Below are positions 1,809 to 61,280 of a stretch of 64,000 bases of DNA, in pieces. A model generated the notes under the pieces. That model worked only from the letters and a program-made list of their open reading frames with translations. It had not been told where the DNA came from and did not search any database. Positions within the stretch are counted from its first letter, which is position 1; each line of letters opens with the position of its first letter. Source of the DNA: Acidimicrobiia bacterium (GTDB lineage Bacteria > Actinomycetota > Acidimicrobiia > Spongiisociales > UBA5794); contig CBDCGU010000003.1 of the NCBI GenBank assembly GCA_965216945.1, forward strand, positions 3,526,653 through 3,590,652, written 5' to 3'. The position numbers and the translations under genes were made by a program.

Positions 1809-1817
1809 GAACGTTCG
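1809..1817. promoter_or_regulatory. GAACGTTCG palindromic core (variant of the recurring operator motif) about 80 nt upstream of the truncated CoxL-like gene; overlaps GTTCTTAGAAC near-palindrome (1803-1812)
   Basis: Sequence read directly; shares the CGAACGTTCG core with sites at 24937 and 56437. Confidence 0.35.
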
Positions 1818-1972
1818 GCGGTTGGGAGATTCGGCTGAGAGCCGCGGCAGGCGTCAGCTGGCACCCCGCAACGGCCACCGGAGCCAGGCACGCACTCGTT
1901 GGGAGGGCCCGCGCTGCTTCCCGGGAGGCGGCATCCTGGGCACAGATGTCTGGATCAACCGTGGCGAGCTGC

Positions 1973-3295
1973 TCACCCATCCTCATGCACCGTCCTTCCC
2001 GTTGGTTCCGCTCCCATGGCTGTTCCTGATCCGCCCATGCGAGCACCGGACCTTCTGGCCCAGACCCCCGCGAGGAGGGCAGCCATCAAGGAGACCGCAG
2101 CGATGCAGCCAAAGGCCGGCGCGTAGTCGTTTGTTGCGTCGACTATGAGACCAAACCCGGGCGGTCCGATGGTGTGGCCGGCGAGGAATCCGAGGACGAC
2201 GATCCCAGAGGCGCGTCCGGCCGCCGAGCTTTCTGCCGTGGCAATGGTGGCGAGCATGCCGACGGCCATCCACGATTGCACGCTGGCGCCGGCGAGCCCC
2301 GCTCCGATCCAGATCCAGCGCCCACCCCAGGATTCGGCGCCCCACATGACGCCGCAGGCGAGCATCGAGACGAGTGACAATGCTGCGATCGCCCTCCCAT
2401 AGTGGCTGAGCCGTTCGCTGAAGTGGCCCCAAGTGATTCTTCCCAAGAACCCGACGCCTCCCATGACCGCTGCCGCAGCGCCGGCGAGAGCGACACTGAA
2501 CCCAACCCGCTCCTCGGCATACAGCGGGAGATACGTGAGCAGCGCGCCCCCTACGACTCCCATCGACAAGCCGAGCGACGCTAGCCACCACGCATCTGTC
2601 GGCACCCGGCTCATCGGGGCGGCCTTCGCCCACGAGGCACCCTCGTCCGCTGGGAGGAACACGAGGGTCGAGGCGGCGAGGAGCCAGGCCGCGAGCGCAC
2701 CCAAGGCAAACGTCGGTCGCCAACCAATGCTGGCTGCCCCGACCGGGACGACGAGACCGGCGAGGACTACCCCTAGCTGGACCGCCGATTGCTTGATTCC
2801 GGTCAGCATGCCGCGTTTACCCGGTGGCACGTTGTGGGCGATCACCTTGTTCGTGCTGGGGTTGGCGACCGATTGGGCGACGCCTGCGACAGTCGAAGCC
2901 ACAATCAGCAAGGGGTAGCTGATACCCAGCGCAATGCCGATGAGCCCGATTCCGGCGAGCACGAAGAGCACCACGAGACTCCGCTTGCCGCCGATCCGAT
3001 CGGCCAGCCAGCCGCCGACAGGCGACAGGACGGCACCGGTCAGGGAGTACGCGGAGACGAGATATCCGATCTGCGCTCGGTTGAGCGATAGTTCACCGAT
3101 GAGCAGTGGGGAGAGCACACCGAACGCCACACGGCCGAACACACCGAGCACCATGGCGGCCGACAGGGTGAATGCGAGTCCGGCGCGAGTCAAGAGCGGA
3201 GAGGCCTCTAGGTGTGCCAGTTCAGTGGCCCCGTGACCCTCCGCGATGGCCCGCGCCTGGGCAGCGCCCGTTGACGGATCTTCGGCCGGGCTCAC
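1973..3295 (-). CDS. MFS transporter
   Basis: 440-aa ORF with about 12 hydrophobic segments; Gly/Ala-rich helix pattern typical of the major facilitator superfamily. Confidence 0.75.
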   Translation of the reverse strand: MSPAEDPSTGAAQARAIAEGHGATELAHLEASPLLTRAGLAFTLSAAMVLGVFGRVAFGVLSPLLIGELSLNRAQIGYLVSAYSLTGAVLSPVGGWLADRIGGKRSLVVLFVLAGIGLIGIALGISYPLLIVASTVAGVAQSVANPSTNKVIAHNVPPGKRGMLTGIKQSAVQLGVVLAGLVVPVGAASIGWRPTFALGALAAWLLAASTLVFLPADEGASWAKAAPMSRVPTDAWWLASLGLSMGVVGGALLTYLPLYAEERVGFSVALAGAAAAVMGGVGFLGRITWGHFSERLSHYGRAIAALSLVSMLACGVMWGAESWGGRWIWIGAGLAGASVQSWMAVGMLATIATAESSAAGRASGIVVLGFLAGHTIGPPGFGLIVDATNDYAPAFGCIAAVSLMAALLAGVWARRSGARMGGSGTAMGAEPTGRTVHEDG

Positions 3296-3308
3296 TGGTG
3301 GTTCGCTT

Positions 3309-3320
3309 GCGTGATCACGC
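3309..3320. promoter_or_regulatory. perfect 12-nt palindrome GCGTGATCACGC in the divergent MFS/cupin intergenic region
   Basis: Read directly; lies 14 nt from the MFS start codon and about 180 nt upstream of the first cupin gene. Confidence 0.3.
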
Positions 3321-3497
3321 GAGACCTGTGGCGAAGGCGGACGGCGGTGATCCGGCAGGTGCGACGCGGCGACGGGCGACTCGCGCCTTTACGGTATTGC
3401 CGCTCACCATCATCCGTTGCGGGCACCTCGCTGCACTGGTATACACTACACCGAGCGCCGCGAGCCGCCGCTCGACCGACGAACGGGAGTCAACGCC

Positions 3498-3845
3498 GTG
3501 CATGTGGTCCGCTGGAGAACCGCCGAGCCATATGTTCCGGCGGGGCACGAAGGAGTCGTGAACCGGCTCCTCGCAGGACGGGCCGAAGGTGAGATCGAAG
3601 CTGTCAGCGTGTGGCATGGGACCTTGGAACCGGGCGGCTTTGCCGAGCCACATGTGCACGAGCGCTCCGTCCAGATCTACGTCGGGTTGACCGGGCAGCT
3701 CGAAGTCGAGACTCCTTCGGGAGTCGCCAACATCACGCGCGGTGACGCAGTCATCCTCGCAGCGACCGAGTCCCACGGTATCCGAAACCCGGATGACGTG
3801 GAGATGGCCACCTTGCTCGTCGTCAGCGCCCCTGCGCTGCGGTGA
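3498..3845 (+). CDS. cupin domain protein 1 of 4 (GTG start; RBS GGGAG 9 nt upstream)
   Basis: PHVHE...G cupin motif 1 region; stop overlaps the next start (GTGA). Confidence 0.65.
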   Translation: MHVVRWRTAEPYVPAGHEGVVNRLLAGRAEGEIEAVSVWHGTLEPGGFAEPHVHERSVQIYVGLTGQLEVETPSGVANITRGDAVILAATESHGIRNPDDVEMATLLVVSAPALR

Positions 3846-9616: not shown

Positions 9617-10063
9617 TCAGATCTCGGTCGGCACCGCCACGATGGGCTTATGCGCCCCGAGTAGAACTTCTTGCGCGACACTGCCCAGGAGCAGTTTGCC
9701 TACTCGAGATCGATTCCGCACGCCGATCACTGCGTAGTCGTAGTTCCCCCTCTCGAACTCCTCGAGGATCTCCACTTCCGGTTGGCCTTCCACCACCTTG
9801 ACGTCCACATGCACATCCTGATCCTCAGCGGCGCCCATCGCCTGTTCGCTGAGGTTCTGCGCGACGTGGCTTACGACCACGTCGACGAATGCTTGATCCT
9901 CGGGGAGCTCGGCGACGGCCTCGGCCATGGCCTCCTCTGTCACGACGTGTATCGATACGACGGTTGCTCCGATGGTTCTCGCCATCCGTACTGCCTCGGC
10001 GGCTACCCGCCCGGAAGCCTCGGTCAGGTCGCTCGCAAGCAGAATTCGGTTGCGGGACTTCAT
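9617..10063 (-). CDS. universal stress protein (UspA family)
   Basis: MKSRNRILLASDLTEASGRV...AVIGVRNRSRVGKLLLGSVAQEVL...PIVAV: classic Usp motifs. Confidence 0.7.
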   Translation of the reverse strand: MKSRNRILLASDLTEASGRVAAEAVRMARTIGATVVSIHVVTEEAMAEAVAELPEDQAFVDVVVSHVAQNLSEQAMGAAEDQDVHVDVKVVEGQPEVEILEEFERGNYDYAVIGVRNRSRVGKLLLGSVAQEVLLGAHKPIVAVPTEI

Positions 10064-20845: not shown

Positions 20846-20932
20846 CGACGGACTGCACGAACGACCAGGAGAGGGAGCCGCCCGGCAGGTCTGGGCGGCT
20901 TTCCTCGATGAGCGTGTGGAACGATCGCTTGC

Positions 20933-23096: not shown

Positions 23097-23114
23097 CGAA
23101 CGTACGTACGTTCG
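23097..23114. promoter_or_regulatory. perfect 18-nt palindrome CGAACGTACGTACGTTCG, about 40 nt upstream of the amidohydrolase gene; member of the recurring operator family
   Basis: Read directly. Confidence 0.5.
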
Positions 23115-24909: not shown

Positions 24910-24933
24910 GCTCTTCGGTGAAGATGCGGTCGT

Positions 24934-24949
24934 GAACGAACGTTCGCTC
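24934..24949. promoter_or_regulatory. GAACGAACGTTCGCTC operator variant followed by CTTCCC, about 60 nt upstream of the second LLM gene
   Basis: Read directly; near-identical to the 56434 site, including the downstream CTTCCC. Confidence 0.45.
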
Positions 24950-25005
24950 TCTTCCCATGGGCGATGGGCGCTCCGCGGCGGCGGTGTCAGTGTGCGCCCG
25001 TCGAG

Positions 25006-34043: not shown

Positions 34044-34061
34044 AGAACGTACGCTCGTTCG
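34044..34061. promoter_or_regulatory. operator-family site (minus-strand CGAACGAGCGTACGTTCT; 17/18 identical to the 41496 site), about 85 nt upstream of the ABC transporter operon
   Basis: Read directly. Confidence 0.5.
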
Positions 34062-41495: not shown

Positions 41496-41513
41496 CGAAC
41501 GAGCGTACGTTCG
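41496..41513. promoter_or_regulatory. operator-family site CGAACGAGCGTACGTTCG, about 65 nt upstream of the LLM-Prx-LLM-OsmC-TauE operon
   Basis: Read directly. Confidence 0.5.
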
Positions 41514-43349: not shown

Positions 43350-43371
43350 GCGAGCCCAATACTCGAAGAGG

Positions 43372-43389
43372 CGAACGAACGTACGTTCC
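43372..43389. promoter_or_regulatory. operator-family site CGAACGAACGTACGTTCC, 23 nt upstream of the LLM start (inside the ORF-track's extended ORF)
   Basis: Read directly. Confidence 0.45.
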
Positions 43390-44700: not shown

Positions 44701-44747
44701 CTCGCACCTTTCCCTTGGAGAGAGTAGATTCACCACGCGAACGGACG

Positions 44748-44761
44748 TTCGTATGACCGTG
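44748..44761. promoter_or_regulatory. operator variant CGAACGGACGTTCG (followed by TATGA) in the divergent OYE / cupin-SO intergenic region
   Basis: Read directly; resembles the 60523 site CGAACGAACGATCGTATGA. Confidence 0.4.
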
Positions 44762-44922
44762 CTACGACAGCGTAGCCCATTTGTCCGGGCGCAAGGCTCG
44801 CTGCAAGCGGGAGCTGGCCCACTATGCCACCGGCGGCAATCGCATGGCTCACCGGACTCGAGGAATGCGGTCGCGAACGGCCGCTCGATGCGGCAGTGCG
44901 TAGAGACAGCGAAGGCGGACCG

Positions 44923-46540: not shown

Positions 46541-47170
46541 ATGTCGCTGCGTACGACAGCCGGAGCCAACGACGCGATCTACCCAGCTGCGATCGATCTT
46601 TTTGCCGAACACGGGTACGAGGCAACGACCCTGAGAATGCTCTCAGACGCGGTCGGGCTTCAGGTGGGGAGTCTCTACAACTACATCGTGTCCAAAGAAG
46701 ATCTTCTCTTTTCGATCATGCGAAACGTCATGGTCGCCCTGTGCGAAGAGGCGGAGGAGGCGGTGTCGCAGAGCAGCGATCCTGCGACGCAGATCGATCT
46801 CTTCTTTCTTCACGCGGTCCGATTCCACGCAGACCGCAAGAAGGAGACGTTCGTTGGCAACACCGAGTTGAGAGCTCTGTCGCCGGCGAATAGAGCAACG
46901 ATTGTCGGTCTCAGGGACCGGTACGAATCGATTCTCCGAGTCGCACTCCGCGCATGTGCTGCGAAGGGCCTCTTGCCGCCGAGCGACGTGCGTCTCGCAA
47001 CCTACGCGGCAATCGCCATGGCCACGCACGTCTCGACATGGTATCGAGACGACGGTGAGCTCTCGATCGAGGAGGTTGCGCTCGGCTTGCGTCGGATGTA
47101 CGCACCCTTCTCAGATCTGGAAGATGCCGCCGACCAGGTGCGCGACAGCCAAGAGAAGTCGTCACGCTGA
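46541..47170 (+). CDS. TetR/AcrR family transcriptional regulator
   Basis: HTH TLRMLSDAVGLQVGSLYNY; AGGAGA RBS. Confidence 0.8.
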   Translation: MSLRTTAGANDAIYPAAIDLFAEHGYEATTLRMLSDAVGLQVGSLYNYIVSKEDLLFSIMRNVMVALCEEAEEAVSQSSDPATQIDLFFLHAVRFHADRKKETFVGNTELRALSPANRATIVGLRDRYESILRVALRACAAKGLLPPSDVRLATYAAIAMATHVSTWYRDDGELSIEEVALGLRRMYAPFSDLEDAADQVRDSQEKSSR

Positions 47171-48536: not shown

Positions 48537-48547
48537 CGTTCCTCCAG

Positions 48548-49780
48548 TCAGACAATCCCGCGCTCGACCAGTGCACGTACCTCGGATGCCCCGAGTCCTA
48601 TCTCGGCCAAGACCTCGCCCGTATGCTCGCCGAGAGCCGGGGGTGGTTCCGAACGGTTGGCGGCAGCACCGGACATCTTCACCGGCGAACCAACGACCCT
48701 CACGGTTCCCATCACCGGGTCGTCGATGTCGAGCATCAGCTGGCGTGCGGCCACGTGCGGGGAGTCGAAGACGTCATGGGCCGTATGGACGGGGCCGGCT
48801 GGCAGCCCTGCTTGGTCGAGGGCCGCGAGCGCCTCGGCCTTGGACCGCTCGTGGAACCATGTGCGGATCAAGTCGCCGAGCCAGCCGTCCATATTGCTGG
48901 CACGTTCGGTCCCGGACTCCGTTCCGGTTGCTCCCACGAGATCGGTTCGGCTGATCGCGTTGCAGAACCGTTGCCAATCCCGCTCCGTGGCGACGATCAA
49001 TGCGATCCACCCGTCGCGACACTCGAACGGTCCCCACGGTGCCATGAACGGTTCATTGCCTCGCTCCAGCACCCGACCGGTCAGCGAGTACGCGGTGACC
49101 GACCGCTCGGCCAGTGCCACCATCGAATCGAGCATCGCAACATCGACGTACTGGCCGATCCCCGTCTGTTGGCGATGGTAGAGAGCCAGCGTGATCGCAT
49201 GCGCGGCGTTCATGCCGGAGACGATGTCCCCCAAGGCAACGCCGAGCCAGGTGGGCGGCCCGCCGGCTTGACCACACGTGTTCATGAGTCCGCTCATGGC
49301 CTGGGCGACAATGTCGTACGCCGGGCGACCGCTGTAGGGTCCCTCGAAGCCCTCCGTGCTACCGAAACCGGTGATGCTGGCGAAGATCAATCCCGGGTTG
49401 TCGCCCTTCAAGTCGGCGTAGCCGAGTCCGAGGCTCGCCAACACTCCAGGCCTGAAATTCTCGATCACGACGTCCGAACGGGCCGCGAGGCGCCGAAACA
49501 CGTCCTGACCCTCTGCCGTCTTTATGTCGAGCGTGATGCTTCGCTTGTTGCGGTTGAAGCGGAGGAAGTAGCCGCTGCGACTATCACCGTCGTCATTGGT
49601 GACGATCGGTGCTCCGTGTCGAGCGGTGTCACCCGTACCAGGACGCTCGACCTTCACCACATCTGCACCTCGGTCGGCGAGCATCATCGAGCAGTAGGGG
49701 CCCGCGACCTGGATTTCGAAACTCAGTACCTTGATCCCGTCGAGGGGGAGTCCCATGGTGCCCAAGGCAGACGCCGTCAC
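48548..49780 (-). CDS. CaiB/BaiF family (class III) CoA-transferase
   Basis: GIKVLSFEIQVAGPYCSMMLADRGADVVKVERP N-terminal signature. Confidence 0.8.
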   Translation of the reverse strand: MTASALGTMGLPLDGIKVLSFEIQVAGPYCSMMLADRGADVVKVERPGTGDTARHGAPIVTNDDGDSRSGYFLRFNRNKRSITLDIKTAEGQDVFRRLAARSDVVIENFRPGVLASLGLGYADLKGDNPGLIFASITGFGSTEGFEGPYSGRPAYDIVAQAMSGLMNTCGQAGGPPTWLGVALGDIVSGMNAAHAITLALYHRQQTGIGQYVDVAMLDSMVALAERSVTAYSLTGRVLERGNEPFMAPWGPFECRDGWIALIVATERDWQRFCNAISRTDLVGATGTESGTERASNMDGWLGDLIRTWFHERSKAEALAALDQAGLPAGPVHTAHDVFDSPHVAARQLMLDIDDPVMGTVRVVGSPVKMSGAAANRSEPPPALGEHTGEVLAEIGLGASEVRALVERGIV

Positions 49781-50103
49781 TCCAGTTCCCCTGCGAGAAA
49801 TGCCGGGATCTCGAGTCTCAGGAGGGCCGTCGACATGGCCTTTCCCGTCTGGTCGAGGCGAAGGGTGCGCGTGGCACCGCCGCCGAGAGCGGACCTGCAG
49901 ACCACGTTGTACGAATGGATATTCGGCATTGGGTACACCTCGACATCGCCCTCGACCCAGCCGGCGAAGTGAGTCTTGATACGATCGGGCGTCAGCAGCT
50001 TGCCGATGGCATCGTAGAAGGCGGGCTCTTTGGCGATAACTCCGATGTTCGATACGTCTCCTTTGTCGCCCGACCGGGCAAACGCGATATCACGAAGCTG
50101 CAT
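49777..50103 (-). CDS. small DUF4387-like protein (the usual partner of AtuA-family proteins)
   Basis: 108 aa, LRDIA...SGDKGDVSN start; recalled family resemblance, not verified. Confidence 0.45.
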   Translation of the reverse strand: MQLRDIAFARSGDKGDVSNIGVIAKEPAFYDAIGKLLTPDRIKTHFAGWVEGDVEVYPMPNIHSYNVVCRSALGGGATRTLRLDQTGKAMSTALLRLEIPAFLAGELE

Positions 50104-50878
50104 CGTGATTCCCCTTCCATGATGGTGGACGCTTCTCGAGGAAAGACCGCACTCCCTCTCTCAACTCGGGGGAGTGGAGGAACGCCGGCCGTATCGCCTG
50201 ACCAAAAGCCACCGCATCGCGATAGGTCAGGTCTCTGATCTGGTTCAGATAGCGCCTACCGAGGGCGAGGGCCGCCGGGGGCTGGGCAGCGAGGCCGGTT
50301 GCGATCTCCATCGCCGCCGGAAGCAGGTCGTCGTGGGGGACCACCCGCGATATCAGGCCCATCGCCGCGGCTTCATCGGCGCCGAAGATCCGCCCGGTCA
50401 AGGCGAGCTCGCGGGCGATGCGGTCACCGACGGCCAGCCGCACGGCGGGCCAAACCATCAACGGAAAGAGCCCGATCCGAATCTCTGTGAGGCCGAATCT
50501 CGCACGGTCCGAAGACAGCGCGACATCGGCGAGGGCAACGATGCCACATCCGCCGGCCATGGCGGCGCCGTTGACGGCGCACACGACTGGGATCCCGAGG
50601 GCCGGCATCTCGACGAAGAGATCGTGCCAGCCGGCGCCGGAGGTCCACATCTCGCTGGCCGATTCGTCGAGTTCCAGCTCGAACTGTGCGAGGTCCGCAC
50701 CGGCCGAGAAGACAGATCCGGCTCCGGTGATCACCACACAACGTACGTCGGGGGCGCTGTCGGCCGCCTGCAGGTGTCTGAGGAGTTCAGCAACTCCGTC
50801 GTAGTCGAGTGCGTTCCGCTGATCTGGATCGTTGAGCGTTAGAAGCCGAACGGCGCCGCGAGTCTCGACCTCAATCAT
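50090..50878 (-). CDS. enoyl-CoA hydratase/isomerase (crotonase) family protein
   Basis: VITGAGSVFSAGADL and CAVNGAAMAGG oxyanion-hole motifs. Confidence 0.8.
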   Translation of the reverse strand: MIEVETRGAVRLLTLNDPDQRNALDYDGVAELLRHLQAADSAPDVRCVVITGAGSVFSAGADLAQFELELDESASEMWTSGAGWHDLFVEMPALGIPVVCAVNGAAMAGGCGIVALADVALSSDRARFGLTEIRIGLFPLMVWPAVRLAVGDRIARELALTGRIFGADEAAAMGLISRVVPHDDLLPAAMEIATGLAAQPPAALALGRRYLNQIRDLTYRDAVAFGQAIRPAFLHSPELREGVRSFLEKRPPSWKGNHDAAS

Positions 50879-52238
50879 CGACGCGATGCATCTTGGTTTC
50901 GACGTTGACGGCGTCTCGGTCGATGAGTGTTGGCCAGAGGCTGATGACCCGCCGCGGCCTCCCAGGCGGCGCAATCGCCGAGCCGACGCCGCCAAGCGTC
51001 CACAGGTGTAGCACCTCGCGCCGCACGGCGTCGGCCTCCTCGGCGGAGTCGCAGTGTGCTGCGACCCGCAAGCCCACCTCGTTGGGTTCGCAGGCGGGGT
51101 CGGGAGCGGACGGGCCGTGGAGCGTGTCGATGCCGACGTACTCGAAGTTGACGTCGCGTGGGTGGACGTCAACCGTCTTCAGCCGCTGTCTCACGATCTC
51201 CTCTCCCCGGCGTGCCTTGAGGTGTGCATCCGGCCAGGAGAACATGGCCATGCCCTCGCCGATCCACCCATCTTCGTACCCGACGCACACCTTGAGCTGG
51301 TCGGGCCGCGTCCGACCTGTCATTCCCGTGACCCGAACACGATCGTCGCCGAGATCCCGAATGGAAGGCTTGGTGAAGTCGGCGATCCCGTCTGGCATCA
51401 CGTAGCTCGCCGGATCGATGACCTCGTACAGCAGTTGCTCCTTGACGGTACGTTCGTTGAGGAGCCCGCCGGTGCCGTCGAGCTTGTGGAACTCGGCGTT
51501 GCCCGAGGCATCGACGTCAGCCATGGGGAAGCCGATGTTCCAGATGTCCGGTGCGTCATTCCAGAAGTTGGAGAGGGAGCCAGTGAGGAGAGCGGCACAC
51601 TCGAGCAGGTGACCGATGGTCACAGCCGCTCCACACAGCTCCGGCTGATCGTATGTCCATCCGAACTCGTGCATCATGGGGCCGACGTAGAGTGCGTTGT
51701 CCGATACACGCCCTGCGACAACCACGTGTGCGTCGTTCACGAGCCCCGCAACGATGCCTTCTGCGCCGATGTACGCATTGGCCGCCACGATCCGGGACTC
51801 GATCCTGGTGATATCGGTCTCGCCCGTGTCGAGGTTCGGAAACTTGGTTCCGCCGGACCAGAGCTCCCGCATCGTCTCGAGAACATCGTCGCCGGTCACG
51901 ACAGCGACCCTGGTGTCGTTGAGCCCGAACTCGGTGGCGATGCGAAGCACCTGTTCGGCTGCAGCGGGTGGATTGGCACCACCGGCGTTGGTGATCAGGC
52001 GGGTTCCCTGCGTGCGGGCTGTGGGGAGGATTGCCCGCATCCACGGCACGATGTCGCGGATGTAGCCGCGGTTTGGATCGGAGTTTCGCTGGCGCTGGAG
52101 GATGGCAAGCGTCAGCTCGGCGAGGTGGTCGAAGCAGAGGTAGTCCAGGTTTCCGCGTTCGGCGAGCTGGACGGCCGGCTCGAGCAAGTCGCCCCAGTAC
52201 GCCGAGCCGCTGCCGAGGCGGATGGTATGGCTTGTCAC
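50871..52238 (-). CDS. acyclic terpene utilisation AtuA family protein (DUF1446)
   Basis: HTIRLGSGSAYWGD N-terminal AtuA pattern; start moved downstream so the operator is not translated. Confidence 0.65.
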   Translation of the reverse strand: MTSHTIRLGSGSAYWGDLLEPAVQLAERGNLDYLCFDHLAELTLAILQRQRNSDPNRGYIRDIVPWMRAILPTARTQGTRLITNAGGANPPAAAEQVLRIATEFGLNDTRVAVVTGDDVLETMRELWSGGTKFPNLDTGETDITRIESRIVAANAYIGAEGIVAGLVNDAHVVVAGRVSDNALYVGPMMHEFGWTYDQPELCGAAVTIGHLLECAALLTGSLSNFWNDAPDIWNIGFPMADVDASGNAEFHKLDGTGGLLNERTVKEQLLYEVIDPASYVMPDGIADFTKPSIRDLGDDRVRVTGMTGRTRPDQLKVCVGYEDGWIGEGMAMFSWPDAHLKARRGEEIVRQRLKTVDVHPRDVNFEYVGIDTLHGPSAPDPACEPNEVGLRVAAHCDSAEEADAVRREVLHLWTLGGVGSAIAPPGRPRRVISLWPTLIDRDAVNVETKMHRVDD

Positions 52239-52254
52239 GGTTTCACCCACCCAA

Positions 52255-52274
52255 GAACGAGCGTTTGTTCGAAC
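52255..52274. promoter_or_regulatory. operator-family site GAACGAGCGTTTGTTCGAAC abutting the AtuA start
   Basis: Read directly. Confidence 0.4.
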
Positions 52275-52358: not shown

Positions 52359-53972
52359 TCAGTTCGGCTCGGTCGACCGGCTCGTGGGTGTCCATGGCAG
52401 CTGCCGGTCCCGCAAGCTGCGTTTGAGGACCTTGCCGCTCGGGGATACCGGGATGTCAGAGAGAGGAACCAAGGCGACCTTCTTCGGAATCTTGTAGCCC
52501 GCGAGGTGTCGTCTCAGGTACGCATCCAGCTCGTTGAGGGTCAGGTCACGCCCGGCCCGAAGTGCAACCACGGCACGGACCTCCTCGTCCCACTCTGCAC
52601 TGGGATATCCCAAGATCGCTGCTTCGGCGATGGAGGGGTGTGAATAGAACACCTGCTCGACCTCAGCCGAATACACGTTCTCCCCTCCGGACTTGATCAT
52701 GTCCTTCGCCCGGTCCCTGAAGAAGAAGTACCCGTCGGCGTCACGGGTCCCGAGATCGCCGGTGCGCAGCCAGCCACCCCGCAGTGCCGCGCTCGTGGCG
52801 TCCGGGCGTCGGAAATACCCCTGCATCACGTTGGGGCCGCGGACGCACAACTCCCCAACCTCGTCACTCGGGAGTTCTTCGTCTGACTCGGGATCGAGCG
52901 ATCGGACGGTCGCCTCCGTCAGCAGGAACTCCTGTCCGATCGAGCCGTCGATGTCGGTGCGGAACATGTCGGCGGGAAGAAGGCGAGTCACGATGGGACC
53001 TGCTTCGGTGAGGCCGTACTGGTAATAGATCTCCGTATCCGGCAGCGCAAGTCTGACGAGGTCCTTGTCCGGCATGCGCCACGTCGAACCCCCCGTGTAC
53101 AGGCGGGCCAGCGACGCCATCCTGCCGTGCTCGACGGCACCGCTCGCCAGGAGTCGCCTGATCATGTTTGGGACGAAGAAGCCGTTCGTCACGCCATGGC
53201 GTGCGATCAAGTCGACGGCATGTTCCTCATCGAAGGCTCTCATGAGCACGCTGGTTGCGCCCAGAAGGAGATGCGGAGCGAACCAACACAACAGCGATGC
53301 CGAGTGGAACATGGGTGCGATCAGGAGCGTGACGTCGCCAGGATGCATATTGGTGTCGATCGTCTCGTTGAGAGCGTTCGTCATGGCGTTCTGGTGCGTG
53401 AGTACGACACCCTTGGGGAAGCCGGTGGTGCCGCCGGTATAGATGATCACCATCGGCGAATCGGGAGTGATCGGTGCGGCTGGGTCGCCTGCCGAACTGA
53501 GAGTTTCATCGAGAGCCGGCCCACCGACGATTGTCTGTTCCAGTAGCTCGAGTTGACCGCTGTCTCGCGACGCCGTCACGAGGTCGACGAACTCGCTCTC
53601 GACGAGCAGGACCCGAGCCATCGAGTCATTCAGCGCAAAGACCAGCTCAGGCGTCGCCCACCTCGAGTTGTATTGAACGGCCACGGCACCTGCGCATGTG
53701 ATAGCAAGAAACGCCTCGACGGCAAAGACGCTGTTGCCGGACAGGAGACCAACCGCATCCCCAGGCTCGACTCCGCACCCGAGCAACATTCGGGACATCG
53801 CCCATACACGGCTGGCGAGGGTCTCGAAGGTCCGTTGCTCGCCATGGTCGTCGATGACCGCCACCTTGGAGGGGCTCCGTCGGCTGTTGATTCTCAGGAT
53901 GTCAGCGAACGTCAACATGGCTCTCTCCACATCAGGCTCGGCTCCGCGGGGCAGTGGGTCGATCACGTCCAT
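52359..53972 (-). CDS. AMP-dependent acyl-CoA synthetase/ligase
   Basis: IIYTGGTTGFPKGV AMP-binding motif; start may be the internal Met at 53918. Confidence 0.8.
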   Translation of the reverse strand: MDVIDPLPRGAEPDVERAMLTFADILRINSRRSPSKVAVIDDHGEQRTFETLASRVWAMSRMLLGCGVEPGDAVGLLSGNSVFAVEAFLAITCAGAVAVQYNSRWATPELVFALNDSMARVLLVESEFVDLVTASRDSGQLELLEQTIVGGPALDETLSSAGDPAAPITPDSPMVIIYTGGTTGFPKGVVLTHQNAMTNALNETIDTNMHPGDVTLLIAPMFHSASLLCWFAPHLLLGATSVLMRAFDEEHAVDLIARHGVTNGFFVPNMIRRLLASGAVEHGRMASLARLYTGGSTWRMPDKDLVRLALPDTEIYYQYGLTEAGPIVTRLLPADMFRTDIDGSIGQEFLLTEATVRSLDPESDEELPSDEVGELCVRGPNVMQGYFRRPDATSAALRGGWLRTGDLGTRDADGYFFFRDRAKDMIKSGGENVYSAEVEQVFYSHPSIAEAAILGYPSAEWDEEVRAVVALRAGRDLTLNELDAYLRRHLAGYKIPKKVALVPLSDIPVSPSGKVLKRSLRDRQLPWTPTSRSTEPN

Positions 53973-54001
53973 CCGTTGGGCCGGGGTGTGCTCTGCTGTC
54001 G

Positions 54002-55141
54002 TCAGGCGAGCGGTGCTCGCTCGATGATGCGGCTGAGTCCGGCGCGCAACGTTTCTTCGCCGGTCGCCAGAGACACCCGCAGATGGTCTCGCGCCCTATT
54101 CCCGAAGGCGCTGCCAGGGGCGACCGCCACTCCGTGATCGATGAGCTTCAGCGCCGTCAGGCGAGAGTCCGTGTCCGGCACCAGCGGTAGCATCACGTAG
54201 AACGCACCCCCCGGTCTGCGCACAGGGTGACCGGCGTCGGCGAGGAAATCGACCACGAGGTCACGTCTCGATCGATAGGCAGCACGCATTTCGGCGACGC
54301 AATCCTGTGGTCCGGTCACAGCGGCTACCGCGGCGGCCTGGACGACAGAGGACACGCACGTGATGAGGGGCTCTTGGAGCACCCACAAGATCGGTGCCAA
54401 CCAGCGGGGTGCCACGACATACCCGATTCGCCACCCCGTCATCGCATACGTCTTCGACAAGCTGTACACGCCGACGACATGCTCCTCGTCGTACTGGTAG
54501 GCGTTGGCGGGGCTACCTTCGTAGACCAATTCGTCGTAGACTTCGTCAGAGATCACGGTGATATCGTGCTCCGCCGCGATCTCGACGATCCGTCGCACGA
54601 CGTGGGGTGGAAACACCGCTCCGGTGGGGTTCGAAGGTGAGTTGAGGCAGATGGCCGCGGTTCGATCCGTCACGAGGGACTCAATGTCCTCGGGGTTCGG
54701 CACGAAGTCGTTGTCCGGTCGTTGCGGGTAGGGGACTGCATCGGCGCCAAAGAGCGAAGCCAGCATCCCATAGTTTGGATAGCCTGGATCAGGCACGAGC
54801 ACCTCGCTGCCTGGGGTGACCAGCGCGGCAAATGCGAGCGAACATCCCTGCATGCCTCCACTGGTGACGACGATCTGGTCCTCGGCGACGTCGAGCTCAG
54901 AGTTCGCCCGGAGCTTGGTTCGGATCGCGGACCGCAACTCGGCTGAGCCGCCGCTCGCCGTGTATCCGGATCCCGTCGAGGCTGCCTTGTGTGCGGCCTC
55001 GACGATGTGCCACGGTGTTGAGAAATCCGGCTCGCCGATCTCGAGTCGGAGAATGTCGTCGCCGCGCTCGATCACGAGGTGCACGATCTCGCGGATTCCG
55101 GACGGAACGACGTTCGTGGCTCGGCTCGACGCTGTAGGCAT
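54002..55141 (-). CDS. pyridoxal phosphate-dependent aminotransferase (class I/II)
   Basis: Fold-type I aminotransferase pattern (SLSKTYAMTGWRIGY with Lys); AGGAGA RBS before ATG 55141. Confidence 0.8.
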   Translation of the reverse strand: MPTASSRATNVVPSGIREIVHLVIERGDDILRLEIGEPDFSTPWHIVEAAHKAASTGSGYTASGGSAELRSAIRTKLRANSELDVAEDQIVVTSGGMQGCSLAFAALVTPGSEVLVPDPGYPNYGMLASLFGADAVPYPQRPDNDFVPNPEDIESLVTDRTAAICLNSPSNPTGAVFPPHVVRRIVEIAAEHDITVISDEVYDELVYEGSPANAYQYDEEHVVGVYSLSKTYAMTGWRIGYVVAPRWLAPILWVLQEPLITCVSSVVQAAAVAAVTGPQDCVAEMRAAYRSRRDLVVDFLADAGHPVRRPGGAFYVMLPLVPDTDSRLTALKLIDHGVAVAPGSAFGNRARDHLRVSLATGEETLRAGLSRIIERAPLA

Positions 55142-55212
55142 GGTGCCCCTTCTCCTCATTCATCCCGGTACTGTTCCGAGCGGTCCATCCATCACCTTCA
55201 CGACACACGTTT

Positions 55213-56394
55213 CTAGAACGACCGAGGGAAACCAAGGAATCGCTCACCAAGGTGGTTACGTGCCATCTCGTTCGAGATCGGCGCGAACGTGTAGAGCCGT
55301 GCGTCTCTGAAATGGCGTTGTACTGCTATCCCTCGAGCGAACGCTGCTCCGCCGAACACCTGCATGGCGTCGGTTGTCGCCTTGATGGCGGCCTCGCTTG
55401 CGGCGATCTTGGCCATGGAAGACAGGAGATCAGCTCGACCTCCGGCGGCCTCGACTTCGGCAGCTCGGACCATCAGGCCTCTCGCTGCCTCAAGCGCGAT
55501 CGCTGCATCGACCAAGCGGTGCTGGAGGGCCTGAAAACTCCCGATCGCCTTGCCAAACGCAGTTCGCTCCGAGGCGTACTCCACAGCAAGCTCGAGCGCA
55601 CCACGTCCGATGCCGATGGCGGCGGCCGCGGCGTTGATACGCTCCTCGTTCAGCGTGTCGAGGACCTGTCGGAATCCCATGTGGATGTCACCCAACATGT
55701 CGTCCTTGCCGACGCGAACGTCGTCGAGGAAGACCTCGGACGTGTCGAGACCATGGATGCTCAGCGTCGCAAGAGGAGTCGTCTTCAGACCGGCGGCGCC
55801 GCCGTCGACCAGGAACATCGTGATTCCGTCGATTGGTGAACCTTCCGAGGTAGCCGTTCGCGCCAGCACTATCAGCACATCGGCTTGGCTCGCTCCTGAG
55901 ATCCACATCTTCGAGCCTGACAGAATCCAGTCATCGCCGTCAGGCGTCGCACGTGTCTTCATGGCTGCTGCAACGTCCGTGCCACCCCCCGGCTCCGTCA
56001 GAGCGAAGGCGACCTTGAGATCGCCGTCGATGAGTTGCTCGAGCATGTTCGAACGGTGCCCACGAACGGTCGCGGTCGACAAGAGGTGGGCCGCCATGTA
56101 GTGGACGATGACGTACACGGCCATCGACGTTGGTCCGGCAGCCAGCTCTTCGACAACAACCGTCTGATCTCGGATGTTTCCCTCGGCGGTTCCGATACCG
56201 AGGATTCCCATCTCGGCGAGTTGGCCGAAGAGCGGCGCATCGAAACGTTCCTCTTCATCGAGTGCCGCCAGACGTTCTGGTGGAGAGGTCGATGCAATCA
56301 TGGTGCGCAAGGTCGATCGCAGCTCGCGCCGCTCAGGGGAATCGGCAGTGGGATCTGATTGGAGCCCGAGAGAATCAGTTAGTTGCACTGCCAC
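55213..56394 (-). CDS. acyl-CoA dehydrogenase family protein
   Basis: ACAD N, middle and C-terminal patterns (MFLVD...; QVFGGAAFARG). Confidence 0.85.
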   Translation of the reverse strand: MAVQLTDSLGLQSDPTADSPERRELRSTLRTMIASTSPPERLAALDEEERFDAPLFGQLAEMGILGIGTAEGNIRDQTVVVEELAAGPTSMAVYVIVHYMAAHLLSTATVRGHRSNMLEQLIDGDLKVAFALTEPGGGTDVAAAMKTRATPDGDDWILSGSKMWISGASQADVLIVLARTATSEGSPIDGITMFLVDGGAAGLKTTPLATLSIHGLDTSEVFLDDVRVGKDDMLGDIHMGFRQVLDTLNEERINAAAAAIGIGRGALELAVEYASERTAFGKAIGSFQALQHRLVDAAIALEAARGLMVRAAEVEAAGGRADLLSSMAKIAASEAAIKATTDAMQVFGGAAFARGIAVQRHFRDARLYTFAPISNEMARNHLGERFLGFPRSF

Positions 56395-56433
56395 CGCACA
56401 GGGTCGGATTGAGACGTTAACCTTAGCGAATGC

Positions 56434-56449
56434 GTACGAACGTTCGCTC
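56434..56449. promoter_or_regulatory. GTACGAACGTTCGCTC operator variant plus CTTCCC, in the divergent ACAD / LLM intergenic region
   Basis: Read directly. Confidence 0.45.
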
Positions 56450-56509
56450 GGCTTCCCCTGAGGCCTGCAATATCAGCATGATGTCCTGTGCTCTGGGGAC
56501 CGAGCCACC

Positions 56510-57565: not shown

Positions 57566-58924
57566 TCACGATCGCATCATCGATACGAGATTGGTGGTGT
57601 ATGCGCCTTGGACAAAGGAAGGAGTGGTGAGCACCTCTTCGAGGAATGGCAGGTTCGTTTCGACGCCATCGATCACGAACTCACCCGCGGCGCGGCGGGC
57701 GCGAAGGATCGCATCGGGACGACTCTGGCCCCAAGCGACAACCTTGGCTAGCAGTGGATCATAGAAGGGCGTGATCTCGTCACCCTTGCGGTAACCAGAG
57801 TCCACGCGGATACCGTCGCCCGTCGGCTCGATCCACTCCGTAACAGGACCAGGTCTGGGGAGGAACCGTTGCGGGTCTTCGGCGTAGACCCGCAGTTCGA
57901 TGGCGTGACCCTTGGGCTGAGCGTCGTCGAGCGTTGGCGTCCGTGTGCCGCCACCCGCGATCCGAAGCTGTTGTTCAACGAGGTCCACTCCATGGACGGC
58001 CTCGGTGACAGGATGCTCGACCTGAATCCTTGCGTTCACCTCGAGGAACGAGAACTCATCACCGTGCAGCAAGAACTCGAAGGTACCTGCATTCTGGTAG
58101 CCGATCGCACGAGCTCCCTCACTGGCCGCGGTCTGCAGTCGTTCCCTCAACTCTTCCCCGATGCCAGGAGCCGGCGTCTCCTCCACTACCTTCTGGTGCC
58201 GGCGTTGTACCGAGCAATCTCGCTCCAGGAAGGTCACGACTTGCCCGTCCGGCATGCCAAGTATCTGGACCTCGATATGGCGTGCGTCCGGGTAGTACTT
58301 CTCCAGCAGCAGGCCCCCACCCCCGAAGAATCTGAGGGCCTGATCGCGAGCCTTGTCGATCGCCGGCAGCAAAGCTGCGGGGTCTTCGATGATGTGCATG
58401 CCGATGCCTCCGCCGCCGGCGGAGGCCTTGAGCATCACTGGAAATCCGATTTCAGCAGCGAGCGCGACGGCGTCGCTGTCGTCCGCAACGGGCCCTCCCG
58501 CACCCACCGGCACGTCGGCTTCCGCCATTCGACTGCGCGCCGCATTCTTGTCGCCAACAGTGGCGATCGATTCCGGGGACGGTCCCACCCACGTCATGCC
58601 TGCCGCCTCGACAGCCCGAGCAAACGGTGCGCTCTCGGCCAGGAACCCGTAGCCGGGGTGGACGGCGCGAGCTCCGCCGAACGTGGCCGCCCTCATGATG
58701 GATGCGATGTCCAGATACGACTCCGCCGGCGGCGGGGGGCCGATGACGTGGTAGCTGTCTGCCTCTGCGACGTGCCGGCTGGCCTCATCGGCGGTGGAGC
58801 AGACCGCGATGGTCTGAATGCCCAGCTTGCGAGCCGTCTCGATCACGCGACACGCGATCTCGCCGCGATTGGCGATGAGGAGAGGACTGAGCGATGTCAA
58901 AGACTCGCTAGACGGGATAGACAC
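57566..58924 (-). CDS. acyl-CoA carboxylase biotin carboxylase subunit
   Basis: ATP-grasp motifs (MLKASAGGGGIGM; EVNARIQVEHPVTE). Confidence 0.85.
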   Translation of the reverse strand: MSIPSSESLTSLSPLLIANRGEIACRVIETARKLGIQTIAVCSTADEASRHVAEADSYHVIGPPPPAESYLDIASIMRAATFGGARAVHPGYGFLAESAPFARAVEAAGMTWVGPSPESIATVGDKNAARSRMAEADVPVGAGGPVADDSDAVALAAEIGFPVMLKASAGGGGIGMHIIEDPAALLPAIDKARDQALRFFGGGGLLLEKYYPDARHIEVQILGMPDGQVVTFLERDCSVQRRHQKVVEETPAPGIGEELRERLQTAASEGARAIGYQNAGTFEFLLHGDEFSFLEVNARIQVEHPVTEAVHGVDLVEQQLRIAGGGTRTPTLDDAQPKGHAIELRVYAEDPQRFLPRPGPVTEWIEPTGDGIRVDSGYRKGDEITPFYDPLLAKVVAWGQSRPDAILRARRAAGEFVIDGVETNLPFLEEVLTTPSFVQGAYTTNLVSMMRS

Positions 58925-60470
58925 CGTTGCGCCGATCTCGTCGACCGATCGGTCGGGTGCTGTAGAGCTCGAAGCGGCGGATCAGCTCTTCACGCAGCTC
59001 TTCACCCGGCACGACAGCCTCGACGGCGTTGTCGGATGCCACCTCGAGGATGTCGATCTCTTCCTCGTACTCGGCTTGCTTCTTCATGACGAATCGTCTG
59101 CGCTCATCGAGGTCCGTGATCTCCTCCAGTCTTCTGGCGTAGATGGCATTGATGGCCGCCGCCGGGCCCATGAGCGCAGGCCGAGCCGTGGGGAGTGCGA
59201 TGAGCGCATCTGGCCCTGTGGGAGCGCCCGACATCGCGAGATAGCCACCGCCGTAGGCCTTGCGGACCATGACGGCGATCCGGGGTACGGTCGATTCGCA
59301 TACGGCGAAGAGCAGCTTCGCACCATGCCTGATGATGCCGTTCCTCTCGACGGCACTGCCGACCATGAACCCCGAGATGTCCTGGAGGAAGAGCAGCGGG
59401 ATGCCGAAAGCGTTGCAGAGCCAAATGAACCGCGCGGCCTTGTCGGACGAATCCGGGAACAGCACACCGGCACGAATCCGAGAGTTGTTGGCAACGATGC
59501 CGACCGATCTGCCACCCAACCTCGCGAAGCCGGTGATCAACTCCTTGGCGAACAGCTCTTTGATCTCGAAGAACGAACCTTCGTCGGCGAGCGCTTTGAT
59601 CAACTCGTGCATGTCAAAGGCAAGGTTCTCGCGTGTTGGCACGATCTCCTCGATCGATGGACCGGGAGCCGGCTCCTTAGCCTCGATCAATCGTTGGGGA
59701 CCGTCCCACCGCGCTGGAACGTAGGACAGGTACTGGCGGAGCGCGCCGATCGCCTCTTCGTCAGTCTCGACGAGCATGTCGCCGAGACCCGAGACGGAGC
59801 AGTGCATCCGCGCGCCGCCCATCTCCTCGAGAGTGACCTTCTCACCAGTGGCCATCTCGGCGAGGCGGGGGGACCCGATGTAGGCGGTGGCCCGGACATC
59901 CACCATCACGATGAAGTCACAGAGAGCGGGGACGTACGCAGACCCCGCGGGACTCGGCCCAAACATCGCGCAGATCTGCGGTACCCGGCCGGACAGCTGG
60001 ATCTGGTTGTAGAAGATGTTGCCCCACGCACGGCGCCCGACGTAGCTCTCGAATTGCTCGTTGATCCGTGCACCTGCGGAATCGACGAGGTACACGACCG
60101 GCGCACCGGCTTCAACGGCGACCTCTTGGATGCGGGTGATCTTCTCGAACGTCTTGCGGCCCCACGTGCCTGCTTTGACCGTGTAGTCGTTGGCGATGAC
60201 GGCCACCAGTGAGCCGTCGACCTTGCCAAACGCCGTCACGACCGCGTCGCCCGGCAGATTCTCGCTCGTGCGTGCCAACAGTCCATCCTCGATCTGCCAT
60301 CCGTCGTCGAACAACAGATCGAGCCTGTCTCTCACCAGCATCTTGCCCGCGACGAGCTGCTTGCGTCGTGCCTCTTCGGACCCGCCGAGCCGTGCGGACT
60401 CGTTGGCCCGGCGAACGGTGTCGGATACCGACTCGTGTTCGGGTCGTGTTTCGCCAGTTCTCGATACCAT
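58908..60470 (-). CDS. acyl-CoA carboxylase carboxyltransferase (beta) subunit
   Basis: Carboxyltransferase N and C domain pattern; start at MVSRTGETRP. Confidence 0.85.
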   Translation of the reverse strand: MVSRTGETRPEHESVSDTVRRANESARLGGSEEARRKQLVAGKMLVRDRLDLLFDDGWQIEDGLLARTSENLPGDAVVTAFGKVDGSLVAVIANDYTVKAGTWGRKTFEKITRIQEVAVEAGAPVVYLVDSAGARINEQFESYVGRRAWGNIFYNQIQLSGRVPQICAMFGPSPAGSAYVPALCDFIVMVDVRATAYIGSPRLAEMATGEKVTLEEMGGARMHCSVSGLGDMLVETDEEAIGALRQYLSYVPARWDGPQRLIEAKEPAPGPSIEEIVPTRENLAFDMHELIKALADEGSFFEIKELFAKELITGFARLGGRSVGIVANNSRIRAGVLFPDSSDKAARFIWLCNAFGIPLLFLQDISGFMVGSAVERNGIIRHGAKLLFAVCESTVPRIAVMVRKAYGGGYLAMSGAPTGPDALIALPTARPALMGPAAAINAIYARRLEEITDLDERRRFVMKKQAEYEEEIDILEVASDNAVEAVVPGEELREELIRRFELYSTRPIGRRDRRNGVYPV

Positions 60471-60522
60471 GCAGTCCACAGCCTTCTCGTCGGCATCCAG
60501 CGGCACAGGACGCTGAGAGCGA

Positions 60523-60540
60523 CGAACGAACGATCGTATG
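60523..60540. promoter_or_regulatory. operator variant CGAACGAACGATCGTATG in the divergent carboxyltransferase / MaoC intergenic region
   Basis: Read directly. Confidence 0.4.
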
Positions 60541-60662
60541 ATCAGGAGCCTAGGGACGAGCACTTGCACCCGCAACCGCAGACGTCGGCGTGTGCGGAGC
60601 GTGTGCGGAGGAGCGGGGCGGCGCCGCAGTGTATCGTCATGCGGCCGCACCTGAGAGGTACG

Positions 60663-61163
60663 ATGTCAACCACTCCACAGAACGGCGGTCCGGCGGAATC
60701 CGCCGATCGAGGACTCTACGATCGATTCTGGGAAGACTTCCCGAGAGGACGGTCTATCACCACGCGTGGCGTCACCGTCACGGAAGCGCACATTGTGGGT
60801 TGGGCGAATCTTGCAGGCGACTGGCTACCTATTCACGTTGACCAGAACGTCTCCTCCCAGAACCACTTTGGTGGCGTGGTGGCACACGGGCCGCTCACCT
60901 TTGCGCTTGCGCTCGGCCTCGTCACACAGAGCGGCATATTTGGTGACGGTGTCCTCGCATGGCTCGGTGTGGACGACCTGCGGCTTCCGCGACCGGTTCG
61001 GCCCGGCGACACTATCTACGTGGACGTCGAAGTGCTCGAGCAGGCGGAGACGTCACGACCCGAACGGGGCAGGGTGACGCTTCAATACACCGTGAACAAC
61101 CAGCACGGTGAGACGGTTATTCACTTCCGATCGACCCTACTCATGAGGAGGGTCGGCGGCTGA
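60663..61163 (+). CDS. MaoC family dehydratase (hot-dog fold, R-specific enoyl-CoA hydratase-like)
   Basis: HVDQNVSSQNHFGGVVAHGPLT hot-dog motif. Confidence 0.75.
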   Translation: MSTTPQNGGPAESADRGLYDRFWEDFPRGRSITTRGVTVTEAHIVGWANLAGDWLPIHVDQNVSSQNHFGGVVAHGPLTFALALGLVTQSGIFGDGVLAWLGVDDLRLPRPVRPGDTIYVDVEVLEQAETSRPERGRVTLQYTVNNQHGETVIHFRSTLLMRRVGG

Positions 61164-61262
61164 GAGCTTTCTGTCCGGTCATGACGAGTCGGCGCCGGGA
61201 GTGGCACATTGCTGGTCGCCAGGAACTGACACCGGTCCGACCACAGGCTATTCTCGCAAAAG

Positions 61263-61280
61263 CGAACGAACACTCGCTCG
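61263..61280. promoter_or_regulatory. operator variant CGAACGAACACTCGCTCG about 50 nt upstream of the 2-oxoacid dehydrogenase E1 alpha gene
   Basis: Read directly. Confidence 0.35.

Follow-up and report, generated by a model that had tools for sequence, protein, structure and literature searches.

The window analysed here, a 64,000-nt stretch of an Acidimicrobiia bacterium genome (contig CBDCGU010000003.1, positions 3,526,653 to 3,590,652), contains ten copies of one 18-bp palindrome, CGAACGWAC|GTWCGTTCG, at the promoters of a ~40-kb catabolic block (23097-61280). These sites are very probably the operators of one transcription factor, for which the TetR-family protein encoded at 46541-47170, a predicted acyl-CoA-type repressor of the island, is the most likely candidate. 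The motif is real and statistically solid, and the assignment of the regulator is well supported by sequence comparison. A first-pass annotation of the same DNA had proposed a single large regulon, and a local regulon, probably under TetR control, is indeed indicated by leave-one-out analysis, cross-prediction between sites, the bimodal distribution of intergenic scores and the comparative link between this TetR family and the motif. The arrangement is an ordinary kind of bacterial gene switch, of which it represents an unusually dense and previously undescribed example, and literature searches with the motif string gave no match.

When aligned, all ten sites fit CGAACG[A/T][A/G]C|G[T/C][A/T]CGTTCG, with CGAACG[A/T][A/G]C as the half-site, and they differ only in the centre (AAC|GTT versus TAC|GTA) and in degeneracy of the outer bases. 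The first-pass annotation had distinguished four long 18-mers from seven shorter variants. The former (23097, 34044 on the minus strand, 41496 and 43372) were recovered by pattern search exactly as written, and the variants at 24933, 52254, 56433, 60523 and 61263 are present as described, including the string ACGAACGTTCGCTC...CTTCCC common to 24933 and 56433 and the CGTATGA tail found at 44738 and 60523. The division into short and long motif types is not upheld, as all ten are one 18-bp palindrome, of which six of the seven shorter variants represent degenerate forms. The variant placed at 44748 does contain CGAACGGACGTTCG but starts at 44738, and that at 60523 is also present, its best register at the carboxyltransferase promoter being 60523-60540. 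The seventh, at 1809 (1808), is not supported, with a score of 4.9 from the refined matrix, far under the background maximum of ~15, so that a place in the regulon is likewise unsupported for the first molybdenum hydroxylase (Mo-hydroxylase) gene at 3-1775.

Several lines of evidence separate the ten sites from the background of the window, which has a G+C content of ~63-68%. The pattern CGAACGNNCGTACGTTCG, with up to two mismatches allowed, gives eight strand-matches at 23097, 34044, 41496 and 43372 versus 0.09 in dinucleotide shuffles. With a symmetric matrix the ten sites score 20.0-27.7 and the next best window position 15.1, and when the window is simulated with a third-order Markov model, the maximum score averages 15.2 and 1.3 positions reach 14 or more, versus 16 in the real sequence. 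In leave-one-out analysis each omitted site ranks first in the window outside the other nine, with a margin of at least 3 bits over the best non-site. Cross-prediction works in both directions, as a matrix from the four strong sites ranks the six weaker ones first and the reverse holds likewise; the next best matches of the four-site matrix are 52254, 44738, 24933, 61263, 56433 and 60527, plus 37007, a candidate dismissed as a background-level match inside an open reading frame (ORF). With the same four-site matrix the 1808 position falls far below these.

The sites are also confined to a particular kind of position. All ten are fully non-coding, although non-coding sequence makes up 11.4% of the window (binomial p=4e-10), and within the window this contradicts the compositional artefact that the first-pass annotation had named among the findings that would speak against a regulon; the comparison of coding with intergenic sites covers the 64-kb window and the loci fetched from other genomes. 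The distance from the end of the site to the most likely start codon is 15-86 nt. The best scores of intergenic gaps are bimodal, at least 20 or at most 8.2, with a single exception of 13.7 at 20918, and of the 19 gaps between 22.5 and 61.3 kb 10 have a site, while the 16 gaps before 22.5 kb have none. The exception, a match at 20918-20935 (GGAACGATCGCTTGCTCA), has a borderline score of 13.7-14.5, near the background maximum, and directly follows the 3' end of the MarR gene, with a DUF427 gene ~500 nt downstream of it. Over 60 nt of flanking sequence the sites share a mean identity of 26% and a maximum of 38%, no more than expected by chance, which rules out an origin by spread of a repeat element or by promoter duplication. 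Megablast of 24 kb of the window against a plasmid collection gave no match. The ten sites serve up to 13 transcription-unit starts, three of them lying in divergent regions, and the earlier count is to be restated as ten sites rather than 11.

The relation of the palindromes to predicted promoters is equally regular. Eight of the 12 site-gene pairs have a -10-like hexamer of the form TANNNT ending 6-15 nt before the site, an arrangement with a binomial p of ~1e-9 given a TANNNT frequency of 0.36% among non-coding positions, and five of these eight hexamers are accompanied by a TTGnnn-like or CTGACA -35 element at a spacing of 17-18 nt. An independent consensus scan recovered three of these promoters (34106-34077, 52308-52279 and 61226-61254). 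The operators are therewith predicted to span about +1 to +25 of the transcripts or to overlap core promoter elements, a position usual for a repressor. The downstream start codons proposed in the first-pass annotation (41429, 43349 and 52238) agree with the points at which the Pfam profiles begin. Its suggestion of leaderless or short-leadered transcripts fares less well: the -10-like hexamers upstream of the operators and the predicted leaders of ~35-110 nt argue against general leaderlessness, the monooxygenase at 43349 being set aside, and Shine-Dalgarno-like sequences are present at most starts.

The only regulator gene found by Pfam annotation inside the 23-64 kb block encodes the 209-aa TetR-family protein (46541..47170, plus strand) and follows the cupin/sulfite-oxidase-like gene, also on the plus strand, at a distance of 115 nt. 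The protein has an N-terminal helix-turn-helix domain (PF00440 TetR_N, E=1.6e-11, residues 15-58) and a C-terminal ligand-type domain (PF17932 TetR_C_24, E=1.4e-24), which by homology belongs to the acyl-CoA-sensing TetR subgroup. Its best matches in the PDB are nearly full-length and range from E=4e-24 to 1e-8, comprising PfmR/TTHB023 (3vpr, E=4e-24), AibR (5k7f, E=3e-17), KstR2 (4w97) and FadR (3whb, 1vi0), and PfmR, AibR, KstR2 and the Bacillus FadR have the same TetR_C_24-type ligand domain. The site nearest to the TetR gene is that at 44738, upstream of the preceding gene. The first-pass annotation had put forward two TetR proteins and a MarR as possible regulators; the TetR at 46541 is supported by the loci of its homologues, and neither the TetR at 15285 nor the MarR at 20933 has an upstream site or a comparative link.

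These homologue loci connect the protein with the motif. Among the contigs of species representatives no close relative of the TetR turned up, the best match having 30% full-length identity, and the 80 loci obtained there served as controls (1.5 Mb); homologues with 45-55% identity occur in metagenomes. Six independent homologue contexts, 106 kb in total, were fetched and scanned with the window-derived matrix at a cut-off of at least 16, giving 14 matches (13 per 100 kb) versus 11 in the 1.5 Mb of controls (0.7 per 100 kb), and eight of the 11 control matches lie ~150 nt upstream of more distant Chloroflexota relatives of the TetR. All but one of the 14 homologue-locus matches are intergenic, the exception (locus L081, position 1099), inside a CDGSH gene, being probably due to chance. 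Matches stand directly upstream of the TetR-containing operon in L091 (2389), L093 (6302), L096 (8546) and L098 (8489 and 8579). A matrix built from the 13 foreign TetR-linked sites alone has as its top ten in the window exactly the ten window sites (19.1-24.7; next 16.2), a recovery that is only partly independent as the foreign sites were chosen with the window matrix.

The families adjoining the TetR homologues are those of the window: AtuA, enoyl-CoA hydratase, AtuA-ferredoxin-like, CoA-transferase, thiolase, carboxylase, MaoC hydratase, branched-chain keto acid dehydrogenase (BCKDH), aminotransferase and monooxygenases. L081 carries TetR, MC-hydratase, AtuA, enoyl-CoA hydratase, AtuA-ferredoxin-like, CoA-transferase, thiolase, mutase and carboxylase genes in the order seen at 52.2-47.3 kb of the window, and L091 has an acyl-CoA synthetase and TetR, with an aminotransferase, two monooxygenases and BCKDH further on. 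In L093 a cupin gene is followed by monooxygenase-TetR, carboxylase and acyl-CoA dehydrogenase, and in L096 and L098 cupin and hydroxymethylglutaryl-CoA (HMG-CoA) lyase genes precede TetR. A further locus, L095 (2894-9911), has AtuA, thiolase, CoA-transferase and mutase genes split into short ORFs, probably through frameshift errors of long-read assembly; it encodes two TetR_C_24 paralogues, and its motif has drifted to CAAGCGAGCGTTCGCTTG.

The converse search, for the exact palindrome CGAACGWACGTWCGTTCG in metagenome contigs, returned at least 120 loci, many on contigs too short to reveal neighbouring genes. Among the 120 loci listed, 23 encode a TetR_C_24-family protein, with an estimated start 7-293 nt from the site in 22 of them, and 16 are unrelated microsatellite junctions. 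The latter include L117, L135, L137, L145, L169, L171, L173 and L198 (~50% G+C), in which the 18-mer arises where a (CGAA)n array meets an inverted (CGTT)n array; such arrays are unrelated to the operator and possibly eukaryotic. In the Chloroflexota loci L005-L012 a conserved palindrome, CCAACGAACGTTCGTTAG (~9804-9821), precedes by ~150 nt a TetR gene whose product shares 41-46% identity with the window protein in the DNA-binding domain, which suggests an operator type common to different phyla. Direct observation covers the motif itself, the statistics behind it, where it lies and how it accompanies this TetR family in other genomes.

Conservation of the sites in orthologous intergenic regions, which the first-pass annotation had made a touchstone of its proposal, is found around TetR homologues and is missing from one informative locus. 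L099 (1-20864) encodes an amidohydrolase 76% identical to the 23156 product together with monooxygenases, an AhpC/DsbD-like protein, an ATP-binding cassette (ABC) importer, TauE and OsmC, and it has no TetR_C_24 gene, no match scoring 11 or more and no alternative repeated palindrome. As this module without TetR_C_24 is also without the motif, the motif travels with the regulator and not with those target genes. A different TetR (TetR_C_11) is encoded nearby in L099, which suggests that another organism has this module under different control, and the monooxygenase/amidohydrolase module appears to have been recruited into the TetR regulon in the genome of the window.

On this evidence a TetR homodimer would bind each 18-bp palindrome at or just downstream of the transcription start and, with each site a few bases past the -10 element or overlapping the promoter, would block transcription initiation or early elongation, acting as a repressor rather than an activator. 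Up to 13 transcription units, with ~38 genes in the 23-64 kb interval, would be repressed. The effector is probably a CoA thioester arising in the pathway, e.g., a branched-chain acyl-CoA, which would bind the TetR_C_24 domain, alter DNA affinity and switch the island on. The TetR probably controls its own expression through co-transcription with the cupin/sulfite-oxidase-like gene, driven by the promoter at the 44738 site; the gap between the two genes has no terminator-like element. Several observations weigh against this proposal. The 115-nt gap before the TetR gene contains no site (best score -1.5), and autoregulation must here rest on the putative co-transcription. The absence of the motif from L099 leaves half of the proposed regulon outside any conserved set of targets. 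Furthermore, the operator of PfmR (CTGACCGATCGGTCAG; PMC7022988) and that of AibR (ACCTACCGGTCGGTAGGT; PMC5389471), the latter an 18-bp inverted repeat as in the window, are both unrelated in sequence to the window motif, so that the operator is unpredictable from homology. AibR moreover binds DNA only with isovaleryl-CoA (PMC5389471), and the sign of the effector response is therefore not transferable to the window TetR.

The missing site in front of the TetR gene also favours the most serious alternative, in which the palindromes would be operators of another regulator, either the MarR (20933-21457), the other TetR (15285-15872) or some factor whose gene lies beyond the window. The gene for the MarR is situated a little way beyond the first site, with the borderline 20918 match (13.7-14.5) at its 3' end. 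Neither of these two genes has a site in its own upstream region, however, and in the six foreign loci and in 22 of the palindrome-anchored metagenome loci listed the adjoining regulator is a TetR_C_24-family homologue of the 46541 protein, which makes control by another factor unlikely. Somewhat less credible again is a split into two related regulons, with one factor acting on the four near-perfect sites with CGTACGTTC half-sites at 23-44 kb, i.e., in the monooxygenase/amidohydrolase/ABC part, and a second on the degenerate AAC|GTT-centred sites of the acyl-CoA part at 44.7-61.3 kb. All four of the strongest sites do fall within 23-44 kb, and the orthologue of that part found elsewhere without motif or TetR suggests a separately acquired module. 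Against this, a matrix trained on either class places all sites of the other at the top of the window ranking, the first module itself contains an AAC|GTT-type site (24933), and the search of the 23-64 kb block yielded no second regulator gene. In addition, half-sites of the TAC type adjoin TetR homologues elsewhere, at L091 3810 and in seven of the 22 TetR-linked metagenome sites listed.

Explanations that dispense with a DNA-binding protein fare worse. The palindromes could in principle form RNA hairpins in 5' leaders, acting in stability, processing or attenuation, as the sites are predicted at about +1 to +25 of the transcripts and a perfect 18-nt palindrome is able to fold into a short hairpin. 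The half-site sequence is nevertheless conserved beyond pairing, and degenerate sites break the pairing without compensation, e.g., CGAACGAAC|ACTCGCTCG at 61263; three of the sites act on divergent promoters, asymmetric sites are found in either orientation with respect to their gene, and the motif co-occurs with a DNA-binding protein family across genomes, all of which renders an RNA function highly improbable. A functionless compositional or low-complexity artefact of ACG-rich sequence could draw on the period-4 NACG structure of the motif and on the occurrence of the same 18-mer at (CGAA)n|(CGTT)n microsatellite junctions in the 16 of 120 listed metagenome loci. The excess over Markov simulations, the confinement of all ten sites to the non-coding 11% of the window and the lack of microsatellites flanking any window site reduce its probability to almost nothing. 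Control of the ten sites by the TetR at 46541 thus stands well ahead in probability of each of these accounts.

By Pfam annotation, catabolic genes form an uninterrupted block that begins at ~23 kb and reaches the end of the window, and the sites are distributed along it as follows. Site 1 (23097..23114, CGAACGTACGTACGTTCG) is a perfect palindrome with 0 mismatches and a score of 27.7; it ends 41 nt upstream of the GTG at 23156, where a plus-strand run (23156-29792) of an amidohydrolase_2 gene, two luciferase-like monooxygenase genes (the first at 24028) and three genes for Mo-hydroxylase subunits begins, and the promoter-like element TTGATT-17-TAGGGT ends 6 nt before it. Site 2 (24933..24950, TGAACGAACGTTCGCTCT, score 23.8) is found within this run, between the monooxygenase gene 24028-24909 and the next one (ATG 24964 or 25006), ahead of the Mo-hydroxylase genes for the FAD, iron-sulfur and large subunits (26052-29792); it may be an internal operator because no -10-like hexamer was found upstream. 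Site 3 (34044..34061, AGAACGTACGCTCGTTCG), supported by pattern match and matrix score, ends 86 nt upstream of the ATG at 33957 of the ABC importer operon (29816-33957, minus; binding protein, ATPase and permease) and 15 nt after the scanned element TTGAAA-18-TATCCT (34106-34077, minus).

Two short-chain dehydrogenase genes separate the importer from the next run (36096-41429, minus), which is headed by site 4 (41496..41513, CGAACGAGCGTACGTTCG), again supported by pattern match and matrix score. This site ends 66 nt upstream of the ATG at 41429 of a monooxygenase gene (40542-41429), followed on the same strand by genes for an AhpC/DsbD-like protein, a monooxygenase, OsmC and TauE and by an uncharacterised gene (36096-37169); the 41429 start is supported by a Pfam profile beginning at residue 136 of the long ORF. 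Site 5 (43372..43389, CGAACGAACGTACGTTCC), with the same two kinds of support, ends 22 nt upstream of the ATG at 43349, a start supported by Pfam alignment, and serves a monooxygenase gene (42381-43349) and an amidohydrolase gene (41540-~42370), which make up the minus-strand run 41540-43349. Site 6 (44738..44755, CGAACGGACGTTCGTATG, score 20.0) occupies the divergent region between the old-yellow-enzyme gene (43579-44700, minus, ATG 44700) and the gene for the cupin and sulfite-oxidase-like fusion (44824-46425, plus, ATG 44824), with the TetR gene (46541-47170, plus) next, and the -10-like hexamers TAGATT (plus) and TACGCT (minus) end 7 and 13 nt before it.

The remaining sites serve the acyl-CoA part of the block. 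Site 7 (52254..52271, AGAACGAGCGTTTGTTCG, score 23.9) ends 15 nt upstream of the GTG at 52238 of a minus-strand operon (47325-52238) encoding AtuA, enoyl-CoA hydratase, an AtuA-ferredoxin-like protein, CoA-transferase III and thiolase, the scanned element TTGACT-18-TACCAT (52308-52279, minus) ending 7 nt before the site. Site 8 (56433..56450, CGTACGAACGTTCGCTCG, score 23.9) lies in the divergent region between the acyl-CoA dehydrogenase gene (GTG 56394), followed by aminotransferase and acyl-CoA synthetase genes (52359-56394, minus), and a monooxygenase-like gene at 56510 (plus). Site 9 (60523..60540, CGAACGAACGATCGTATG, score 20.4) is shared between the carboxyltransferase gene (ATG 60470), followed by biotin carboxylase (57566-60470, minus), and the divergent MaoC-like hydratase gene (ATG 60663; 60663-61163, plus); on the minus strand TTGCGG-17-TAGGCT ends 6 nt before the site, and on the plus strand the scanned element CTGAGA-18-TATGAT (60513-60542) has a -10 that overlaps it. 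Site 10 (61263..61280, CGAACGAACACTCGCTCG, score 21.3) ends 49 nt upstream of the ATG at 61330, from which genes for the E1alpha, E1beta and E2 subunits of a branched-chain 2-oxoacid dehydrogenase run onward on the plus strand, and 8 nt after the scanned element CTGACA-17-TATTCT (61226-61254).

The gene content of 23156-29792 and 36096-46425 points to sulfite-releasing organosulfur (sulfonate) or similar oxygenative catabolism. This set comprises six luciferase-like monooxygenases, the TauE sulfite exporter (37237-38106), the fusion of cupin and sulfite-oxidase-like Mo domains (44824-46425), OsmC, the AhpC/DsbD-like protein, the old yellow enzyme and the ABC importer, and the same set recurs in L099. 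A simple codon-bias gene call missed the enoyl-CoA hydratase gene (50090-50870, minus) between those for AtuA and the AtuA-ferredoxin-like protein as well as the MaoC-like (mesaconyl/methylglutaconyl-type) hydratase gene (60663-61163, plus) divergent from the carboxyltransferase gene; both families are conserved beside TetR homologues elsewhere. The source-genome protein record P0090 (238 aa) starts at the ATG at 23303, and homologues of 285-287 aa cover 99-100% of the query from the GTG at 23156, so the deposited P0090 annotation is probably truncated at its N terminus and the GTG start is supported. Two further features upstream of the block are unrelated to the motif: a Memo-like gene that convergently overlaps a radical-SAM gene in an AmmeMemoRadiSam-like pairing (16005-17881), and the MarR gene flanked by two DUF427 paralogues (19588-22561).

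Genes under one ligand-responsive repressor usually share a pathway, and the regulon therefore links the putative organosulfur/oxygenase module to a leucine- or isoprenoid-like acyl-CoA pathway. A wider interpretation, which we hold to be possible but on balance doubtful, is that the TetR and its palindrome CGAACGAAC|GTTCGTTCG define a widespread, uncharacterised regulon family (in Actinomycetota-like high-GC organisms, Chloroflexota and others) for AtuA-type or branched-chain acyl-CoA catabolism that has here captured a separately evolving module of ~20 kb, comprising the six luciferase-like monooxygenases, the amidohydrolases, the Mo-hydroxylase, the ABC importer, the TauE sulfite exporter and the sulfite-oxidase-like enzyme. 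If so, one acyl-CoA signal would co-induce desulfonation or oxygenation of the substrate and breakdown of its carbon skeleton. No new kind of mechanism is revealed. Nevertheless, ~38 poorly characterised catabolic genes, including those for AtuA-type proteins, monooxygenases and the cupin/sulfite-oxidase fusion, gain a probable regulator, an operator and a map of transcription units, and the ligand of the TetR at 46541 would identify an intermediate of the pathway. The operator consensus concerns a TetR_C_24 subgroup that recurs in many uncultured bacteria and would be useful for regulon annotation and possibly as part of an acyl-CoA biosensor.

Among known systems, the LexA SOS box of Gram-positives and actinobacteria, GAAC-N4-GTTC, was rejected as a source of the motif, as the outer GAAC/GTTC arms are 8 nt apart in the sites, the inner ones abut and the downstream genes are catabolic. 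The operator core matches that of PaaR (TTHA0973) from Thermus thermophilus HB8, for which the experimentally selected consensus is AACnAACGTTnGTT and the tested probe AACAAACGTTTGTT (PMC6651687). Except at its two n positions, this consensus is identical to the central 14 bp of the window motif, AACGAAC|GTTCGTT, and the window core AACGAACGTTCGTT fits it, the mismatches per site being one at 24933 and 43372 and two at 23097, 41496 and 56433. PaaR, too, is a TetR-family repressor; it governs phenylacetyl-CoA catabolism by acting on the operon that encodes it and on one further catabolic operon, and its effector was reportedly found by Sakamoto et al. in 2011 to be a CoA thioester. The window motif differs in extending over 18 bp with conserved outer CG...CG and in tolerating the centre TAC|GTA; the window regulon has ten operators versus two for PaaR, and the closest solved relative of the window protein is PfmR. 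No genes of the PaaABCDE type appear in the Pfam annotation of the window, where the targets are AtuA, CoA-transferase, thiolase, carboxylase, BCKDH, monooxygenases and others, so the window system does not belong to a paa regulon.

PfmR (Thermus), AibR (Myxococcus), KstR2 and FadR regulate fatty-acid, isovaleryl-CoA or steroid side-chain CoA-ester metabolism. In gene content, the 55-64 kb part of the window is very like the cluster controlled by mycobacterial BkaR/Fad35R (Rv2506), a local TetR repressor of carboxylase, acyl-CoA dehydrogenase and branched-chain 2-oxoacid dehydrogenase genes with the operator GTTA(N)T(N4)A(N)TAAC (PMC3920632). That operator is unrelated to the window CGAACGWACGTWCGTTCG, and BkaR, whose gene is divergently transcribed from a promoter with two operators, has a regulon of 10-12 genes and 2-3 operators. 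In the KstR regulon of mycobacteria and rhodococci, one TetR repressor acts through a short palindromic operator at many promoters of a large cholesterol-catabolism block. KstR is the closest analogue in architecture, although its operator (TnnAACnnGTTnnA, 14 bp), protein subgroup and pathway differ from those of the window. Taken together, these comparisons suggest that the window system works like a PaaR-type or KstR-type local TetR regulon.

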